Shown: in pieces, positions 8,015-22,515 of the stretch
Layout of the letters: every line of letters starts with the position of its first letter
Position numbering within the stretch: the stretch's first letter is position 1
Source of the DNA: a virus
Lineage: Duplodnaviria; Heunggongvirae; Uroviricota; Caudoviricetes
Strand: one strand, 5' to 3'
Length of the DNA: 23,585 nt
Virus record (IMG/VR): IMGVR_UViG_2565956613_000007
The notes under the pieces: model-generated
What the model was told of the DNA's origin: nothing
The model's database searches: none
The model's input: the letters and a program-made list of their open reading frames with translations, nothing else
Made by a program: the position numbers and the translations under genes

Positions 8015-8034
8015 AGAAATCCCGCCGATTGGCG
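8007..8034. terminator. Rho-independent terminator between convergent operons
   Basis: Seen in sequence: AAATCCCGCC-gatt-GGCGGGATTT stem-loop followed by a T run on the plus strand. It sits between the end of the dar operon (plus) and the end of the ssb operon (minus). Confidence 0.7.
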
Positions 8035-8042
8035 GGATTTTT

Positions 8043-11175: not shown

Positions 11176-11188
11176 TAGTTAACGAGAA

Positions 11189-11214
11189 CCCCGGCAGCCG
11201 CCGGGGTTATTTTT
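11189..11214 (+). terminator. Rho-independent terminator after the lyz operon
   Basis: Seen in sequence: CCCCGGC-agcc-GCCGGGG stem-loop followed by TTATTTTT. It lies between the convergent lyz operon and pro. Confidence 0.7.
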
Positions 11215-14016: not shown

Positions 14017-17000
14017 ATGAACAAGCTATCTATGGGGGTGTTTCGCTGTTCAAGTGTCAGCGAAATATTGAAATACATTAGGGCAATAACATCTCACCGA
14101 GCGCCGATTAGATACGGCGTGGAAAAGGTGGAAGGCAAAAGCTATGACCGACTACGCCGGGAGGCGAATCAGAAGGCGATTGATTTGCTTAATTCGCTGG
14201 TGGACGGCGCGACACTGACAGATGAACAGCGCCAGATCCTGGCTGGGTACACCGGTGAAGGCGGCATTGGCGGGTCCGTCTCCGAATATTACACACCAAA
14301 GCCGATCGCTGAAGGTGTCTGGGAGATCATGAAGCTCTACGGCGCGGACGTAGGTAACACTCTGGAACCATCGGCGGGCACCGGCGTTTTTAATGAGACA
14401 AAACCGGTTGGTACGGTGATGACTGCGACTGAGATCAGCAGTGTTTCCGGTCGTATAAACCAGCTGTTACACCCGGAAGACAGCGTACAGATTTCCCCGT
14501 TCGAACAGCTGGCTGTAAGCACGCCTAACGATTCATTCGACCATGTTGTGGGTAACGTTCCGTTCGGTGGTCGTGATAACACACGCAACATCGATAAGCC
14601 TTACGCAGAAGAAACGGACATGGGTTCTTACTTCATGCTCCGCATGCTGGACAAGATAAAGCCAGGCGGATTCATGTGCGTGATTGTGCCGCCGTCCATT
14701 GTTTCAGGTTCAAACATGAAGCGGTTACGCCTGCGCCTATCACGGAAAGCTGAATTTCTTGGTGCTCACCGCTTGCCTACCGGTACTTTTGACGCAAACG
14801 GGACCAGTACAGTCGTTGATGTGGTGCTGATGCGCAAACATCCGGCAGAGATGGCTGAGAAAATCCCCCTGGTGGATGAAAGCACTCTTGAATCGGCAAA
14901 TGTGCTTTGGCCAACGTTTATTTCTGGCAAGTGGTTTGAAAAGGACGGTCGCCGGTTTGTTCATGGCACCCAGGAGAAGGGATTCCAGGGGCGTATTGAG
15001 GTTCGTGCCGACGGGCAGATTGATAACCAGGCTCTTAAAGCGAAGCTGATTCATCGTTTCGAAAGTCGTATCGACTGGTCTTTACTCAATATGGCTGAAC
15101 CGTCACCGACCGCAGACGTTGTTGATGAAGGGGAAATGCGCCTGATTAATGGCGTATGGCAAAAATATGCTGGTGGTCGCTGGATTGAATCTGATGCAGG
15201 GAAGGAGCTGAAGATTGATGTTGCCAGTTATGGCGCGGACAGCTGGGAGGCTCTTCAGCGTAACCTGACTACAACAGAAGGCCGTCTCGGTATGACATTT
15301 ACCCAGATGGCAAATGTCCGCGATAAGTACACCACATCAATCAGCGACGATATGGTGCAGCTGGTGGACTGGATTAACAGCCAGCCTGAAAAATACCGTG
15401 AACGCTTGTATCGCGGGGCGATGATTGGCCGGATGTTAATTGAATATCAGGACATGAAGGCCGCCGGGCATAGTGCTGAACAAATCGAACAGCAGCGCCT
15501 TTCTCTGGTATCCCGTTTGCAGGCAGAGATTGACCGTTTTGGTAACCCCGGTCGCGGTCCGATAGCGAAATTATCGGGGAGCGGTGCGCGCGCCTGGTTT
15601 GCTTTCCGTGGTGCAATTAAGCTGGATGGCACTATTTCTGACGAGCTGACAGGAAAACTGGTTACGCATGATTCCAGCGCCAGTTATGACTCCACCAGCT
15701 ATCAGGACACCCTGCGTTATCTCTACAGTGATCTCACTCGCGATCCAATCCAGCTCGATGATTTCCGCCTTGCGTTTACCGGCGAACTGCCAGCCAGTGA
15801 TGACGAGTTGCTTAATTTATTGGCCAGCACCCCTGGCATTGCGGTTTCACCGTATGGCGGGATTGTTCCGTTCGCCCGCGCCACCAGCGGAGACATTAAC
15901 GAGATAGTGGCACCAAAACAGGAATTCCTTGCCACACTCCCCGACGGTCCAGTAAAGAACAACGTCCTTAATCAGCTGGCAGCGATCGAAGAGAAGCGCA
16001 TCAAGACGCCAGCAGAGAATATCCGCTTTAAGCTCAATAGCCGTTGGTTCGACCGTTCCGTCATTCTGGAATTTTTGCAGGAAAACGGCTATCCGGATCT
16101 TCGCTATGTGCAGTCAGTGCAGCTGGAAGGCGACGAAATGGTTTCTGACACCTATCACGGTGGTGATGGTCTGTTCGTCGGGCACCGATACGGTGTTGTC
16201 CAGCGCAAGGATAAAGAAACAGGCGAGATCCGCTACGAGTGGGACCGTAAATCAGGTGAAAACGCGACCGGGTTCCCGGCACAGCTGGAAAAGTATCTCA
16301 ATGGTGCGCGTATCGGTGGCAAAGATAGCGCGACGGCGAACGGCTACCGCGAGCAGATGGCACTGCTTGAGGACCAGTTCAATAAGTGGATCAAGACGCA
16401 CGATCGCTACGATGAACTGGTTGCCAAATACAACGATGTGTTCAATAGCAATATCCCGTATGAACACTCTGGCGATCCGCTTGGGTTGAAGGGATTAAGC
16501 GGTAAGCGCCAGCCATTTGATTACCAGAATAGCGAAGTGCGCCGACTGTCCGAAGATGGGCGCGGCATCCTGGGCTTCGGCACCGGGCTGGGTAAAACTA
16601 CGACCGCGCTGGCGCTTGAAGCGTTCAACTATGAGAACGGTCGCTCCACCCGTACTGCGTATGTAGTGCCTAAATCAGTGCTGGAAAACTGGTATTACGA
16701 AGCAAAAGAATTCCTGAGTGAAGAGGCATTCAGTAACTACCTGTTCGTCGGTCTTGATGTGCTGATGGATGGCGATCAGATTCGCCAGGTGCCGGTGCTC
16801 GATGAGAACGGTAAACCTGTTCTTGGTACTGATGGCACTCCAGTTATGCGCGATGCCCTAAAACTGGCAGATGAAGCCACTATCACGGCGCGGATGAACG
16901 CGATCCCGCACTCAAATTACCGTGCAGTCGTGTTTACCAAAGAACAATACGCCCGCATTCCGCTACGTGATGACACCGTAGATGAGCATGCACAGGATAT

Positions 17001-20000
17001 GCTTTATGACTTCGTTGCCGCCGGGCGCGTAGCCAGCGCAATGGACTCCGACTCCCACCGCAAAGAGGCCGCGCGTCGCCGGGTATTGTCGGAGTATTCA
17101 GATACCGGCACCGAAAAAGCAGAGAAGTATCCGTACTTTGAGGATATGGGCTTCGATAGTGTGATCGCTGACGAAGGTCACAACTACCGCAATAGCTATA
17201 AAAATGGTCGCGAAGCGTCACAACTGGCCTATCTGCCCACCAGCGCGGTGGCGCAATCGGCGCGGGATATGGCAATTAAAAACGCGTACCTGATGAAAAA
17301 GAATGGTGGGCGCGGACCGGTTCTCCTGACTGCAACGCCAGTCGTTAACACCCCGATCGATGCATACAACATGCTTTCTCATGTGCTGCCGAAGGAATAC
17401 TGGCAGAAGATGGGGATCTACGGTCCTGATGACTTCGTTAAATTCTTCGGCAAGACCAGGCTGGAAACGGTACAGAAAATCAGCGGTGAAGTTGAAGAAA
17501 AAATGGCGCTGGTGGGCTTTGAAAACCTTGATGCGCTGCGCGGCATATTCCATCGCTGGACAACGCTTAAAACGGCGGAAGACGTTAAGGATACCGTGGA
17601 GATCCCGGAACTGGACGAGCACCAGCAGGATGCACCACTTACTGAAGAACAACTGGCGGCGTATGAAGAATTACGTCAGCAGGCGGAAGCGGCAGCAAAA
17701 GCCAACAATGGCGTAACGACCTCGGTCAATGAAGACGGCGTGATTGAGCACGAGAAAGCCCGTCCGATCTTCTCAATAATCAGGGATATGGACCGCGTAT
17801 GTACTGACATGGACCTGTACTATCGCAGGATCACCTATCGTTTCCTGCCGGAGTACGCCGATGCGGTGCAGCAGCTGGCGGACAGTTTGCCTAAACAAGC
17901 CACCAGCGAAGACGACGACAGTGATGATTCAATCACGCAGCAATCGCAATACTCCCTGATAGATAAGGGCGAGTTTATTCAGTTGCAGGTTCCGGAAGCG
18001 TTCGAGCAGGAAGTGAATAAGCGCCTGGCCAGGTTTGGCATTGACGAACAGACCGTAACTCACCCCGTTACACCCAAATACGCGAAGCTGATCGCCACGC
18101 TGAAGGAGTTTTTCCCGGAAGGTAAGCAAATCATCTTCACGGACGAAAAAACGCAGCACCAGAAGCTCAAGCGCATTATCTGCAATGCTCTTAACCTTGA
18201 ACCTTCAAAGGTGGGGATCCTGAATGCTCAGACGGTTGCCGAGGCAGGTAAAACCGGTAAGAAACTGAAAGCGGTTAAACCGCCGAAAGAGTTACCGGAT
18301 GAACCAACAGATGCACAGATAGCGAAATACAACGAGCAAATGGCTCTGTATGACGCCTATATCGCGCAGCAAAATGAAATGTCGTTGGGCGGTCTGGAAA
18401 AGATTGCTGCCGACTTCCAGGAGGGCCGGACCCCGATCATCATCTGCAACAAAAAGGCAGAGGTGGGTATCAACCTGCATCGAGGAACGACTGACATCCA
18501 TCATCTGACGTTGCCATGGACACCAGCCAGTATCGCACAGCGTAACGGTCGCGGTGCCCGAGTTGGCTCCAACCGTGCAAGCGTACGCGTTCACTACTAC
18601 TGCGGCAAAGGTTCTTTCGATGAATACCGACTGAAGACGCTGAAGCGTAAAGCAGGCTGGATCTCCGATATCCTCCGTTCAGATAAGTCAGAAATGGAGA
18701 ACGCCGACGCCAACGATATGATCGAAATGCAGATGTATACCGCTAAGGATGATGGCGAACGTCTGGCAATGATGCAGGTTCAAATGGATAAGGCGAAAGC
18801 CGCGCAACGCGCTCGCCAGAAAGAACAGGCTACTATCGACCTTCAGAACTACATCAAGGCGCAGCACGCAGCTGGCGAGGATGTGGAGGTACTTACCGCT
18901 GAATTAGAGCGAAGCAAAGCGGAACTTGAAAAGACCACCGCCGAGGTAGCTAAATTCAAACAGACGGTAATGGCCAAAGCAGCTGATAACGCAGACTGGA
19001 AGGCCCGCTGGGGTAGCGTCCATCACACAGACCGTACGTTGTTAGCACAGTATCGCGCGTCGTTGAAAAGCGCCATTCAGCGCAAGGCTAATATCTCTCA
19101 AGCCATCTCCCGCTATGAGAAATTATTGAACCGTACTCAGAAGGCCGCGACGGATATCAAACGCCTGCGCCCGCTGGTGGAGGATGCAATAAATAAAGGC
19201 ATTCTGGATGTTGATCCTGATCTGGTTAACCATGCGAATAAGTTCCTTGTTATCGGCGATCGCTCATGGCGTGTAGGCCAATACTACGATTGTGCCGGTG
19301 ATATCGTTCGCATTAAGTCGCTGGACTTCGACAGCCAGCGCGCAGACGTGGAGATCATCTTTACCTTCAAAGGCACCAAATCGGGTAACTGGGATGTGAA
19401 GACGCTGGATAAACAGGTGGATGTAACTCCCGATGAAGATGCTGTTATGCAGAAAATCAGTGGTGGCGTCTCCATCGCCGGGATTAATGACATCATTTCC
19501 TGTGACGATTTCTACCGTTTCCAGCAGCGCGGCATGATCAAAATCACTGACTCATACGGCGTTCAGACTACAGAGTCAGGCTATAGCATTGATTTTGTTG
19601 GTACCTATACGGCCCCACTGAAGCATGCGGTTTACCCGGATCGCCGTGACGGCGCGCTGAAGTCGTCAATTGCAAAATGGGTGCTTGGTATGATGTCGGA
19701 AGGGAATAACCGCCAGATCCGTTCGGCAGAAACATTCCTGGTTGAATTGTTTGGCTCCAATTATGGCGATGTAATCGCGTCATACGGAGATACGCTATCC
19801 CCTGAAGCAATTCAGGAGAAAATAGTGGATGCGATCGCAAAAATGCCGGAGAAAACAAGCCAGGGGGCTACTCGTAACGGGGATTCTGAACTTGAGGTCA
19901 CCAATGCCATTTTCGGTACCCATGAGTTCCGGGCGTCAGATTATGAGATCACCACAGCACAGTTTGGCACTATTGGCATTTACAGCAATAAAGCCGATAT

Positions 20001-20784
20001 CAAGCAGGCAATGGACGCAGCAAGCGCGCGCATCGCAGCAGAACGGGAAGCCAATCTGAATCATGCAGTCGCCGCACTGACTCAATCGTGGGTAACAGCA
20101 ATCAGGGAGGCCGCCACCACAGGGAAAATCACACCTGCAATTGCGGATGTCGTAAACGACGGCTCTAAATTTATGGATGCCTATAAAATGGATTCGGTGC
20201 AGTTGCCATCAGCCTATGGCCAACTCAGCTATCGCATGACCTACAACCTGGTATCAATGTTTTCCGACCTTGCCATCCTTGGGCTGGTGGATCTTAACGA
20301 GGTTACGCCGGAATTGCTCAGCATGCGCAAGAATCATGTGGAGATATTGCAGAGAATTAACACGGTTCTTGCCGGGCGCACCGATGAAGAGAAACAGGCC
20401 GACGCTGATCGGATAAACCTGGCCCTTGGCAACATCACGGAGGAAGAAATTGCCGCCAGAAACGAGAAACAAGAAGAGTTATCATCAATACAGGGTGATG
20501 CCACCAGCATAGCTCAGTCTCTTGGTCTGAATTATCGCGTATCCACCGCCGACCTGAAGATGATGTACGCACCAAAATTCGCCGCTGGCGAGGTATTTGG
20601 GCTTCAGGAAGCCTCAGGCATGAAAGGCGTTCTTTTCCGTGCCAAAGACGCAATCAAGGCGAAATTCGGCGCTCGCTGGCTGCCAGCGAAGGCGAAGAAC
20701 AGCGATTTCCCGGGTAACTGGTGGATTATCGAGACAAAACACAACGTGGCGGACGTTCTGGCCGTCATCCAACAATACGCATAA
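14017..20784 (+). CDS. darB: DarB-like giant antirestriction protein: N-terminal N6-adenine methyltransferase motifs plus an SF2/SNF2-like helicase domain (2255 aa)
   Basis: AAGGA 6 nt upstream of the ATG. SAM-binding motif LEPSAGTGVF (14362..14391), catalytic-type motif VGNVPFGG (14548..14571), Walker A GFGTGLGKTT (16573..16602), DEGH box (about 17167..17181) and motif VI QRNGRGAR (about 18538..18561). Length matches my recollection of P1 DarB. Confidence 0.88.
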   Translation: MNKLSMGVFRCSSVSEILKYIRAITSHRAPIRYGVEKVEGKSYDRLRREANQKAIDLLNSLVDGATLTDEQRQILAGYTGEGGIGGSVSEYYTPKPIAEGVWEIMKLYGADVGNTLEPSAGTGVFNETKPVGTVMTATEISSVSGRINQLLHPEDSVQISPFEQLAVSTPNDSFDHVVGNVPFGGRDNTRNIDKPYAEETDMGSYFMLRMLDKIKPGGFMCVIVPPSIVSGSNMKRLRLRLSRKAEFLGAHRLPTGTFDANGTSTVVDVVLMRKHPAEMAEKIPLVDESTLESANVLWPTFISGKWFEKDGRRFVHGTQEKGFQGRIEVRADGQIDNQALKAKLIHRFESRIDWSLLNMAEPSPTADVVDEGEMRLINGVWQKYAGGRWIESDAGKELKIDVASYGADSWEALQRNLTTTEGRLGMTFTQMANVRDKYTTSISDDMVQLVDWINSQPEKYRERLYRGAMIGRMLIEYQDMKAAGHSAEQIEQQRLSLVSRLQAEIDRFGNPGRGPIAKLSGSGARAWFAFRGAIKLDGTISDELTGKLVTHDSSASYDSTSYQDTLRYLYSDLTRDPIQLDDFRLAFTGELPASDDELLNLLASTPGIAVSPYGGIVPFARATSGDINEIVAPKQEFLATLPDGPVKNNVLNQLAAIEEKRIKTPAENIRFKLNSRWFDRSVILEFLQENGYPDLRYVQSVQLEGDEMVSDTYHGGDGLFVGHRYGVVQRKDKETGEIRYEWDRKSGENATGFPAQLEKYLNGARIGGKDSATANGYREQMALLEDQFNKWIKTHDRYDELVAKYNDVFNSNIPYEHSGDPLGLKGLSGKRQPFDYQNSEVRRLSEDGRGILGFGTGLGKTTTALALEAFNYENGRSTRTAYVVPKSVLENWYYEAKEFLSEEAFSNYLFVGLDVLMDGDQIRQVPVLDENGKPVLGTDGTPVMRDALKLADEATITARMNAIPHSNYRAVVFTKEQYARIPLRDDTVDEHAQDMLYDFVAAGRVASAMDSDSHRKEAARRRVLSEYSDTGTEKAEKYPYFEDMGFDSVIADEGHNYRNSYKNGREASQLAYLPTSAVAQSARDMAIKNAYLMKKNGGRGPVLLTATPVVNTPIDAYNMLSHVLPKEYWQKMGIYGPDDFVKFFGKTRLETVQKISGEVEEKMALVGFENLDALRGIFHRWTTLKTAEDVKDTVEIPELDEHQQDAPLTEEQLAAYEELRQQAEAAAKANNGVTTSVNEDGVIEHEKARPIFSIIRDMDRVCTDMDLYYRRITYRFLPEYADAVQQLADSLPKQATSEDDDSDDSITQQSQYSLIDKGEFIQLQVPEAFEQEVNKRLARFGIDEQTVTHPVTPKYAKLIATLKEFFPEGKQIIFTDEKTQHQKLKRIICNALNLEPSKVGILNAQTVAEAGKTGKKLKAVKPPKELPDEPTDAQIAKYNEQMALYDAYIAQQNEMSLGGLEKIAADFQEGRTPIIICNKKAEVGINLHRGTTDIHHLTLPWTPASIAQRNGRGARVGSNRASVRVHYYCGKGSFDEYRLKTLKRKAGWISDILRSDKSEMENADANDMIEMQMYTAKDDGERLAMMQVQMDKAKAAQRARQKEQATIDLQNYIKAQHAAGEDVEVLTAELERSKAELEKTTAEVAKFKQTVMAKAADNADWKARWGSVHHTDRTLLAQYRASLKSAIQRKANISQAISRYEKLLNRTQKAATDIKRLRPLVEDAINKGILDVDPDLVNHANKFLVIGDRSWRVGQYYDCAGDIVRIKSLDFDSQRADVEIIFTFKGTKSGNWDVKTLDKQVDVTPDEDAVMQKISGGVSIAGINDIISCDDFYRFQQRGMIKITDSYGVQTTESGYSIDFVGTYTAPLKHAVYPDRRDGALKSSIAKWVLGMMSEGNNRQIRSAETFLVELFGSNYGDVIASYGDTLSPEAIQEKIVDAIAKMPEKTSQGATRNGDSELEVTNAIFGTHEFRASDYEITTAQFGTIGIYSNKADIKQAMDAASARIAAEREANLNHAVAALTQSWVTAIREAATTGKITPAIADVVNDGSKFMDAYKMDSVQLPSAYGQLSYRMTYNLVSMFSDLAILGLVDLNEVTPELLSMRKNHVEILQRINTVLAGRTDEEKQADADRINLALGNITEEEIAARNEKQEELSSIQGDATSIAQSLGLNYRVSTADLKMMYAPKFAAGEVFGLQEASGMKGVLFRAKDAIKAKFGARWLPAKAKNSDFPGNWWIIETKHNVADVLAVIQQYA

Positions 20785-20790
20785 CAGGAG

Positions 20791-20808
20791 CGCCCGGTTC
20801 GCCGGGCG
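20791..20808 (+). ncRNA. GC-rich hairpin with a UUCG tetraloop between the SD and the ulx start codon (structured mRNA element)
   Basis: Seen in sequence: CGCCCGG-ttcg-CCGGGCG, a 7-bp stem, lying between AGGAG (20786..20790) and the ATG at 20818. Confidence 0.5.
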
Positions 20809-20817
20809 TCGCATAAT

Positions 20818-21258
20818 ATGGCCACACTATCTGATACAATAAAACCGAATAAAACATATCTTGAGGCGGTACTCCGTACAGCGTTGTTAGGAAAGACAGA
20901 AGACGAATACGTTGATTTCTTCCTGTCAGGGCTACGCGGGCGATTACTGAAAAATCCCCGCCTGTACCGCAGCTATGGTCCATACTGGCCGGAAATTAAA
21001 AAATTATTACTGGAGCGCGGTTATGGTAATTTCGGTCGTCTCGTTGACCGTGACGTTCGCAAAATTTACCGTTATGACCGCCCGGCGCTGACGCTCATAG
21101 CTGCGACGCTCTACAGCCAGGAGCGTTTTGATAATGGTCAGATATACTCAGCCTGGCATTTACTGCCAGTGCCTGAAGAGGTTGACGACCAGGACTATGA
21201 GTTTGAGTCTTACGATTTGGAAGTTGAAGCCTTAGCACAGGCTGGAGAGAAAACTTGA
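20818..21258 (+). CDS. ulx: Ulx-like protein (146 aa)
   Basis: Position directly downstream of darB on the same strand and upstream of an 82-aa ORF matches P1 darB-ulx-lxc as I recall it. No motif recognised. Confidence 0.5.
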   Translation: MATLSDTIKPNKTYLEAVLRTALLGKTEDEYVDFFLSGLRGRLLKNPRLYRSYGPYWPEIKKLLLERGYGNFGRLVDRDVRKIYRYDRPALTLIAATLYSQERFDNGQIYSAWHLLPVPEEVDDQDYEFESYDLEVEALAQAGEKT

Positions 21259-21503: not shown

Positions 21504-21564
21504 TTTCTTATTAGGCCACTTTATTTTTTAGAGTGGCCTAAATTACTTATAATTAGGATGTGAT

Positions 21565-22515
21565 ATGAATGTTTTTATTGATACAAATCTATATTTAGAA
21601 TTTTATCGAATGGGTAAGGATAAACTAGATGAGCTAGATAAAGTATTTGCCTTACATCAATATGGTCGTTTAAAACTTTGGTTGCCAGAACTTTTAGTGA
21701 ATGAGTTCTGGAGAAATCGTTCTAAAGTTCTCTCTGAAACCATAAAGGAAATTGCAAAAGACTACAAGCCCGCGCTACCACAGATTTTCAGACAGCATGA
21801 AAAACATTCACTATTTAATGATAAGGTTATAGAAGCTAGTCGGCTAAAGAATGAAATTATTACCGATATACAGAACTTATTTAAAGAAGAGTCTTTAGCT
21901 GCCGATGTTGTAATTAAAAGGATTTTTGATGCAGCGTCTAAGATAGAGGCTGATGATGAAACAATAGAAAAGGGGAAACGCCGATTCGATCTTGGCAACC
22001 CTCCGGGTAAAAATAAATCATATGGTGATGCAGTCAATTGGGAGTGTTTGCTAAAAGCGATACCAAACGGAGAGGATATATACATTATAACTGAAGATGG
22101 TGATTATAAAAGTGCCTTTATAAAGGATGATATGAATGAGTATTTGAAGTACGAGTGGAAAAAGAAGAAAGATTCAGAACCACATATCTATGCCCGCTTA
22201 TCAGAGTTTATAGGCGAGCACTTTCCTCAAGCCAGTAACTTAGCGGAAATGGAAGTTAATTTCACTATAGATGAATTACGCCGCTCAGGCAGTTTTGCCA
22301 CAACACATCGAGTTGTAGCAAAGTTATTAAAATTCAATCATTTTACACAAGAGCAAATCCTAAAAATAATCGATATCTATTTTAATAATGATCAGGTTGG
22401 CTTCATTAAAGATGATGATGATGTAAAACTACTCGCCAGAAGACTAATATCACTTGGTGACGAGGATAAAGATCCTGAAGGGATGCTTGAGCCATTCCGT
22501 GTATTTATTGATTAA
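21565..22515 (+). CDS. PIN-like nuclease-domain protein (316 aa) in an AT-rich acquired cassette; candidate defence/abortive-infection effector
   Basis: ATG with AGGA 6 nt upstream. N-terminal beta-strand with Asp (MNVFIDTN), then LPELLVNEF, DLGNPPGKNKSYGDAVNW and IYIITEDGDY, a spacing of acidic residues typical of PIN-like folds. Codon usage and base composition are visibly AT-rich, unlike the flanking genes. Confidence 0.7.
   Translation: MNVFIDTNLYLEFYRMGKDKLDELDKVFALHQYGRLKLWLPELLVNEFWRNRSKVLSETIKEIAKDYKPALPQIFRQHEKHSLFNDKVIEASRLKNEIITDIQNLFKEESLAADVVIKRIFDAASKIEADDETIEKGKRRFDLGNPPGKNKSYGDAVNWECLLKAIPNGEDIYIITEDGDYKSAFIKDDMNEYLKYEWKKKKDSEPHIYARLSEFIGEHFPQASNLAEMEVNFTIDELRRSGSFATTHRVVAKLLKFNHFTQEQILKIIDIYFNNDQVGFIKDDDDVKLLARRLISLGDEDKDPEGMLEPFRVFID

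Follow-up and report, generated by a model that had tools for sequence, protein, structure and literature searches.

A putative split ribosome binding site between darB and ulx in P1-like phages

The ulx gene of a P1-like phage or phage-plasmid is probably translated from a split ribosome binding site (RBS) of the type known from phage T4 genes 38 and 25, a reading to which we give a probability of roughly 70%. The Shine-Dalgarno (SD) sequence of ulx is separated from its start codon by exactly 27 nt, counted from the last G of AGGAG to the ATG at 20818, and most of this distance is taken up by an 18-nt hairpin with a perfect 7-bp, all-G/C stem (20791-20808). If the hairpin is closed, the SD would be brought to an ordinary distance from the AUG. 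Selection on the SD, on the stem and on the length of the spacer that follows them can be shown computationally by comparing relatives, and this comparison carries most of the argument below. Throughout, 'the window' refers to the whole stretch of DNA that was analysed, which is 23,585 nucleotides long.

The window comes from a P1-like phage or phage-plasmid whose nearest relative is phage JL22 (99.3% identity), and its darB-ulx-lxc segment is 98% identical to that of P1. The annotation of P1 and JL22 has darB, ulx and lxc in this order, with the 33-nt gap between darB and ulx and the ulx ATG both as in the window. In the P1 record, the sole promoter annotated for the darB-ulx-lxc unit is the predicted PdarB, upstream of darB; the same GenBank record has no promoter, terminator or RNA feature annotated between darB and ulx, and a promoter and terminator scan of the window found no promoter between the two genes. 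Since a promoter at this place is neither annotated nor predicted, ulx is taken to be carried by the darB mRNA, which the two genes share. P1 virions contain the Ulx protein (PMC9024508), and the gene must therefore be translated; Ulx aids the entry of DarB into the capsid (PMC12810830).

The surroundings of this unit are of some interest in their own right. The junction between ulx and lxc is a conventional coupled one, unlike that between darB and ulx: lxc starts with a TTG at 21255 and overlaps the ulx stop by 4 nt (21255-21258). Similarity to P1 stops just past lxc, at ~21510. The reading frame at 21565-22515, on the plus strand, encodes a 316-aa PIN-domain protein (Pfam PIN_12, E = 8e-18), and P1 has its mod/res restriction genes in that place, which suggests that the cassette after lxc, accessory or defence in nature, has been swapped.

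The features of the junction are collected in Table 1.

Table 1. Features of the darB-ulx junction in the window
Feature	Position	Strand	Basis or remark
darB, upstream gene of the operon, 2255 aa, stop TAA 20782-20784	14017..20784	+	ORF list; annotated at the matching position in P1 and JL22
SD AGGAG of ulx (putative)	20786..20790	+	Best anti-SD duplex upstream; 27 nt linear distance to ATG
Hairpin 5' arm CGCCCGG	20791..20797	+	Sequence, folding
Hairpin loop TTCG, sequence unconserved	20798..20801	+	Relatives compared
Hairpin 3' arm CCGGGCG	20802..20808	+	Sequence, folding
Spacer tcgcataat, single-stranded; its 9 nt would be the effective SD-AUG distance with the hairpin closed	20809..20817	+	Relatives compared
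ulx, 146 aa, start ATG 20818-20820	20818..21258	+	ORF list; P1 and JL22 annotation; conserved N-terminus

Read in order, the junction is gca TAA c AGGAG CGCCCGG TTCG CCGGGCG tcgcataat ATG gcc. The hairpin starts 7 nt past the darB stop, adjoins the SD with 0 nt between them and is followed by 9 nt to the ATG. An earlier note on this DNA, made from the sequence alone, had described the hairpin as lying exactly between the SD and the start codon; it does lie between the two, though off centre, against the SD. The same note had taken the ATG at 20818 to be the sole possible start of ulx and AGGAG to be its sole SD, and we come to the same view of both. The two genes share a frame. Eleven open codons separate the TAA from the ATG, namely cag gag cgc ccg gtt cgc cgg gcg tcg cat aat, and an ATG, GTG or TTG is not among them; the ORF list agrees. 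The start is further fixed by the N-terminus of Ulx, M-[A/T/S]-T-L-x-D, which is kept in homologues down to 41% identity. AGGAG gives the top anti-SD match in the 45 nt upstream of the ulx ATG (-6.6 kcal/mol), and no comparable SD-like match is found 3-13 nt upstream of that ATG. Judged by what is established on SD spacing and by the T4 cases (PMC3014915), a gap of 27 nt between SD and AUG far exceeds functional spacing.

The RNA folding calculation that the earlier note had proposed as a check also bore it out, giving a dG of -13.6 kcal/mol for the isolated hairpin and a pairing probability of ~1 for the stem positions in a 100-nt context. An additional pair is possible in the P1 haplotype, between G20790 at the end of the SD and U20809, which lengthens the stem to 8 bp. 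A further pairing was seen between GGCCGU in the last darB codons (~20752-20757) and AUGGCC at the ulx start (20818-20823), which would enclose the SD and the hairpin; it appears in the 100-nt folds of several haplotypes and is absent from the 201-nt minimum-free-energy fold, and its conservation is uninformative because both sides are under coding constraint.

Taken by itself, a single sequence is only suggestive that the hairpin is beyond chance. Two perfect all-G/C 7-bp hairpins are present in the window, versus 0.12 expected per shuffled window, and the fold z-scores of the whole region are unremarkable and not significant (-1.26 and -0.45). It is because of the comparative data that we judge the hairpin to be beyond chance.

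Homologues of Ulx were gathered from IMG/VR, GTDB genomes, metagenomes, PLSDB and a public-assembly index (ENA, JGI, NCBI and Logan), and among those collected there are eleven distinct darB-ulx junctions with the hairpin. The distance from SD to stem is 0 nt in all eleven haplotypes, and the spacer from stem to ATG measures 6-9 nt in every one of them, its sequence varying in 8 of 9 columns. The SD reads (A/C)GGAG throughout the P1-clade haplotypes, GGAGG in the contig L246 and GGGGG in Enterobacteriaceae bacterium B14. Across the nine haplotypes of the P1 clade, the 5' arm CGCCCGG is invariant, and the sole change anywhere in the stem is a C->T in the 3' arm of L160, which makes a G-U pair in the plus-strand RNA and a C-A mismatch on the opposite strand. 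For comparison, ulx in these haplotypes departs from the window at 50 to 61 of its first 100 third-codon positions.

The loop behaves quite differently from the stem. Ten loops occur in the relatives (TTCG, TTAG, CGCG, CACG, ATGT, CGAA, CGGAG, GAAG, GTAA and AGTC); all but the last two belong to the P1 clade, in which almost every lineage has its own, and the loop of L168 has 5 nt. Tuerk and colleagues reportedly described, in 1988, extra-stable C(UUCG)G tetraloop hairpins in the intercistronic regions of T4. The haplotype of the window and P1 resembles these in carrying a UUCG loop on an intercistronic G/C stem, and the earlier note had named the hairpin after its UUCG tetraloop. A special role of this loop is not supported: the closing pair of the ulx hairpin is G20797-C20802, so that the loop is not of the C(UUCG)G kind, and nine other loops, one of them of 5 nt, are found in relatives. 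Because the loop is replaced in relatives and closed by a G-C pair, we regard its UUCG identity as incidental.

Counted by column, 2 of 19 positions are variable in the SD and stem versus 12 of 13 in the loop and spacer (Fisher p = 4.8e-6), which answers in the affirmative the question of stem conservation across P1-like phages raised in the earlier note. In the 14 stem positions, one change was seen against at least 22.6 expected at the minimum loop/spacer rate (Poisson P = 3.6e-9); the SD likewise shows one change against at least 8 expected at the loop/spacer rate (P = 0.003). Coding constraint is excluded on either strand because the indels in the loop and spacer (1-2 nt) are not multiples of three. 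The minus-strand open reading frames that cover the junction (20604-20825, 20614-20814 and 20765-20983) were considered as a source of constraint and rejected in view of these same 1- and 2-nt indels.

Two lineages outside the nine P1-clade haplotypes add changes within the stem. In L246, whose Ulx is 74% identical, the innermost pair has changed from G-C to A-U, the outermost pair is lost and the loop is GTAA. The junction of B14, whose Ulx is 57% identical, reads TAA-GGGGG-GCGCCCC-AGTC-GGGGCGC-aagcaaa-ATG, i.e. a perfect 7-bp all-G/C stem at the same place with another sequence, five of the seven pairs differing on both sides when the two stems are compared in register. It should be noted that L246 is a single 976-nt contig and B14 a single genome: PLSDB yielded no close relative of either, and a search for further relatives of these covarying lineages returned only the B14 contig itself, and none for L246. 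In a formal pair count over nine gap-free haplotypes, 98.4% of cells are paired, versus 22-46% when the partners are slid. Formal covariation over the same nine haplotypes is thin, consisting of one double-sided change, with a score that was reached in 59 of 500 shuffles. B14 was compared by hand and left out of the formal pair count because MAFFT set its hairpin out of register. Covariation thus amounts to the A-U pair of L246, the G-U pair of L160 and the stem of B14, and the case rests mainly on the conservation contrast together with B14, not on abundant covariation. The stem changes that have been tolerated fit a helix formed by the plus-strand RNA.

More distant relatives do without the hairpin altogether. 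Their SD is located at, or overlaps, the darB stop and stands 5-8 nt from the ATG. Junctions of this kind are found in Enterobacter/olxA-type elements, as TAAGGAtttgaaATG (L083) and TAAGGAttttgaaaATG (L237-239); in L234-236, as TAAGGGActactATG; in L084, as GGGAttaatcATG; in sequences from gut metagenomes (L224-228), as TAGGAGtctcaaATG; in a Desulfovibrio MAG (L163), as TAAAGGTGGtaggcATG; and in Vibrio plasmids, as GGAGataaaaATG and GAGGAaatttgcATG. In a neighbour-joining tree of Ulx, the carriers of the hairpin (the P1 clade and B14) form one clade nested among hairpin-less lineages, and the hairpin was therefore gained once. The earlier note had spoken of a hairpin 'inserted' between SD and start codon, and the tree and the hairpin-less junctions make this an apt word: the simplest history would be a single 18-nt insertion between the SD and the spacer of an ordinary RBS, in the ancestor of the P1 clade.

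There is also a P1-like lineage in which ulx is not accompanied by darB (L199, L209, L075/L151, L214 and L244, the last being E. albertii plasmid NZ_CP030784.2). Here, the 5' base of the hairpin (window 20791/20792) marks the point at which homology to the window sets in, and the SD is absent. The stem is disrupted, with dG values of -6.0, -7.5 and -0.5 versus -13.6 kcal/mol, and ulx itself shows decay, its ATG having become ACG in L244 and ATA in L214. The stem is thus conserved only where the unit of SD, hairpin and AUG is intact, and the darB-less lineage would serve as a natural control. In L199, an upstream ATG lengthens the ulx ORF by 17 codons across the hairpin. A separate breakpoint was noticed in the metagenome contig OOBN01012092.1 (L216:1440-1500), where the end of an IS911 element (IS3 family) adjoins the ulx hairpin loop (window 20798) and occupies the place of the 5' arm, the SD and darB.

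We envisage the following mechanism. In the darB-ulx-lxc mRNA, the 18 nt directly 3' of AGGAG would fold as a 7-bp G/C hairpin. When closed, the hairpin would be looped out of the mRNA path of the 30S subunit, and the SD-anti-SD helix would come to stand 9 nt from the AUG, a normal distance; when open, it would leave the 27-nt gap and the SD would be useless. That a folded hairpin restores normal SD-AUG spacing was the interpretation offered in the earlier note, and the comparative data (a spacer of 9 nt here and of 6-9 nt in relatives) lend it support. The hairpin was acquired once, in the ancestor of the P1 clade, and has since been under strong selection for maximal stability. Selection for an all-G/C stem explains why its sequence is frozen, since any single change lowers the stability; pair flips are seen only at the depth of B14 because the passage from G-C to C-G needs a mismatched intermediate. 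We infer folding of the hairpin in vivo at the time of initiation, dependence of ulx translation on the folded hairpin and perhaps an extra role, e.g. fast refolding each time a ribosome has terminated at the end of darB.

For membership of the split-RBS class, we used as thresholds an SD more than ~15 nt upstream in linear distance and a spacing of about 5-13 nt with the hairpin closed. At the sequence level, the ulx junction has all the features of the class, namely a distant SD, no alternative to it, a hairpin in between and phylogenetic conservation. The precedent on which the earlier note relied is real: in T4 gene 38, the SD is 22 nt from the AUG, a hairpin cuts the spacing to 5 nt and mutations that destabilise the hairpin reduce initiation (PMC3014915). 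The T4 gene 26-25 junction has an 'accommodated' RBS, whose linear spacing of 27 nt is shortened to 11 nt (Nivinskas 1999; Malys and Nivinskas 2009, summarised in PMC3014915). For T4, the mechanism is supported by mutagenesis, reporters and DMS probing (PMC3014915).

The P1 ulx junction resembles that of T4 gene 38 in its distant SD and intervening hairpin, the spacing here going from 27 to 9 nt. There is no sequence homology between the two, which belong to different phage families and concern different genes; in addition, the P1 hairpin is all-G/C, adjoins the SD and lies 7 nt after the upstream stop. With T4 gene 26-25, the ulx junction shares the identical 27-nt linear spacing (effectively 11 nt in T4 and 9 nt in ulx), the intercistronic position and the distribution among relatives, close ones having the hairpin and distant ones a normal RBS. 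In T4, the gene 25 hairpin is found in close T-even phages only, more distant relatives having a normal RBS (PMC3014915), a distribution that points to a single late acquisition. The two sequences are unrelated, however, and the upstream stop precedes the SD in P1, whereas the T4 genes overlap; the P1-like elements also offer a relaxed-selection control in the form of the darB-less lineage. A different arrangement is the 'split ribosome binding site' of E. coli thrS, where a hairpin is accommodated by the 30S subunit and stays folded (PMC3936740). The thrS hairpin stands between the domain that holds the SD and AUG and a single-stranded region for standby or binding further upstream, and it is an operator for ThrRS; the ulx hairpin separates the SD from the AUG and has no known regulator.

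Like an intrinsic terminator, the ulx hairpin is short, rich in G/C and found where a gene ends, and it differs from one in having no U tract. A terminator was rejected on these grounds: the hairpin is followed by UCGCAUAAU, no U tract is found on either strand in any haplotype and the terminator scan was negative on both strands. Elsewhere in the window, three hairpins look like ordinary intrinsic terminators: those at 8017-8040 and 11187-11208 are perfect, G/C-rich and followed by T runs, and a 13-bp hairpin at 21511-21541 comes right after lxc. A scan of 20500-21100 against Rfam 15, with E values up to 10, gave no relevant match; the sole match lies elsewhere and is a chance one (E = 7.9).

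The hairpin could be more than a passive spacer, acting as a device to capture the ribosome that leaves darB or as a site that a factor of the phage or host recognises by its sequence, and we consider this rather improbable. In the capture variant, a ribosome ending the 2255 codons of darB would sit against the stem or open it, and the stem, on folding again beside the SD, would pass the 30S subunit on to the ulx AUG. With only 7 nt from the darB stop to the hairpin, a terminating ribosome does sit against it. A capture device would fit because the stem is frozen through >50% synonymous divergence, adjoins the SD and begins so soon past the stop. If it were true, synthesis of Ulx, a packaging helper of DarB, would be confined to the time and place at which a complete DarB has just been finished. 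That the stem is invariant in sequence, beyond pairing alone, would also fit a sequence-specific ligand.

It could also be that the hairpin was selected for another function, e.g. mRNA stability, the split-RBS geometry being a mere consequence. In the fuller form of this idea, which we hold to be unlikely, the hairpin is mainly an element of mRNA stability or processing, either as a barrier to 3' exonucleases for the 6.8-kb darB message or as the 5' protective stem of a processed ulx-lxc RNA, and ulx is translated mostly by ribosomes that re-initiate after darB. A very stable G/C hairpin (-13.6 kcal/mol) does end a very long gene, only 7 nt past its stop; the two genes share an mRNA, with no promoter between them; and an all-G/C stem conserved for maximal stability is what such an element would show. 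This account leaves unexplained why the SD is constant and abuts the stem in all eleven haplotypes, and why the stem stays 6-9 nt from the ATG despite a spacer whose sequence changes freely. A scanning post-termination ribosome would, moreover, have to cross the hairpin itself. That the stem decays in the absence of darB and the SD, though ulx and lxc remain, fits both readings and is only weak evidence against this one.

The opposite sign of effect has to be weighed as well. The hairpin may be a negative element that, placed right against the SD, acts by lowering or insulating ulx initiation to keep the Ulx:DarB ratio low, such that its removal would raise Ulx synthesis. Such an element would agree with the split-RBS geometry, and the two readings part only over whether the net effect, measured against an ancestral junction, is positive or negative; we rate it as quite unlikely. 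The 8-bp stem of the P1 haplotype, in which the last G of the SD pairs with U20809, speaks in its favour, as do the relatives that function without a hairpin. The G-U extension is, however, absent from all other haplotypes, in which the spacer starts with G or A, and occlusion of the SD is therefore unconserved. The analogous T4 hairpins, for their part, enhance translation in comparison with destabilised mutants (PMC3014915).

We see little prospect for a feature that acts as DNA, i.e. a palindrome of two 7-bp half-sites around a free 4-bp centre, at which a dimeric protein would bind or a recombination process would act. Invariant half-sites around a hypervariable centre are the classic pattern of a dimer operator, and two independent breakpoints fall within the palindrome (at its 5' base in the darB-less lineage and, with the IS911 end, in the loop). 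Set against these, the 5-nt centre of L168 alters the phasing of the half-sites, the L160 change keeps a G-U pair on the plus strand and breaks the DNA palindrome, and B14 and L246 alter the half-site sequence yet retain pairing. There is no nearby promoter to regulate, and the position of the element is fixed relative to the SD and the ATG (6-9 nt).

A chance or neutral palindrome without function, with ulx translated poorly or independently of the SD, is scarcely credible: the hairpin is only mildly unexpected by itself (~0.12 per shuffled window) and the regional z-scores are not significant, but the stem and SD have been kept while neighbouring and synonymous sites are close to saturation (P = 3.6e-9), B14 has a hairpin of independent sequence at the same position, decay of the stem is confined to the darB-less lineage and the Ulx protein is found in virions (PMC9024508).

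Two further candidates were rejected. Programmed read-through of the darB stop codon, stimulated by the hairpin downstream and giving a DarB-Ulx fusion, does not agree with the gap lengths, which are 33 nt (P1), 32 nt (L085) and 31 nt (B14); the frame relation of darB and ulx also varies among the hairpin-less relatives, and the common frame in the window is probably coincidental. Ulx-like proteins of greater length do occur in the databases (P0003, 217 aa; P0005, 161 aa). In L086-type relatives, an alternative SD could be formed by the 3' arm together with GGU, 7 nt from the ATG; it is weak, available only with the hairpin open and unconserved.

A split RBS thus remains our preferred reading, and the darB-ulx junction of P1 is most likely a new, unrelated case of a rare but known RBS arrangement. 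To our knowledge, natural split RBSs with a looped-out hairpin are documented for very few genes, T4 genes 38 and 25 being the reference cases. We found no discussion of the ulx RBS in the papers examined that name ulx or darB; papers on the P1 genome or the Dar system may mention it. The junction would provide an unrelated example in a classic model phage and in a large family of phage-plasmids, and one that comes with a natural series of hairpin-less ancestral junctions, some ten hairpin variants, two-sided pair changes and a decaying version. This series would be a ready-made means of testing how the 30S subunit deals with structure that intervenes between SD and AUG. On the practical side, gene callers and predictors of RBS strength would rate ulx as having no RBS. 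For the biology of P1-like phages, the arrangement is relevant to the stoichiometry in which the Dar anti-restriction proteins are packaged in P1 heads, and its significance would increase if the hairpin couples the synthesis of Ulx to the completion of DarB.
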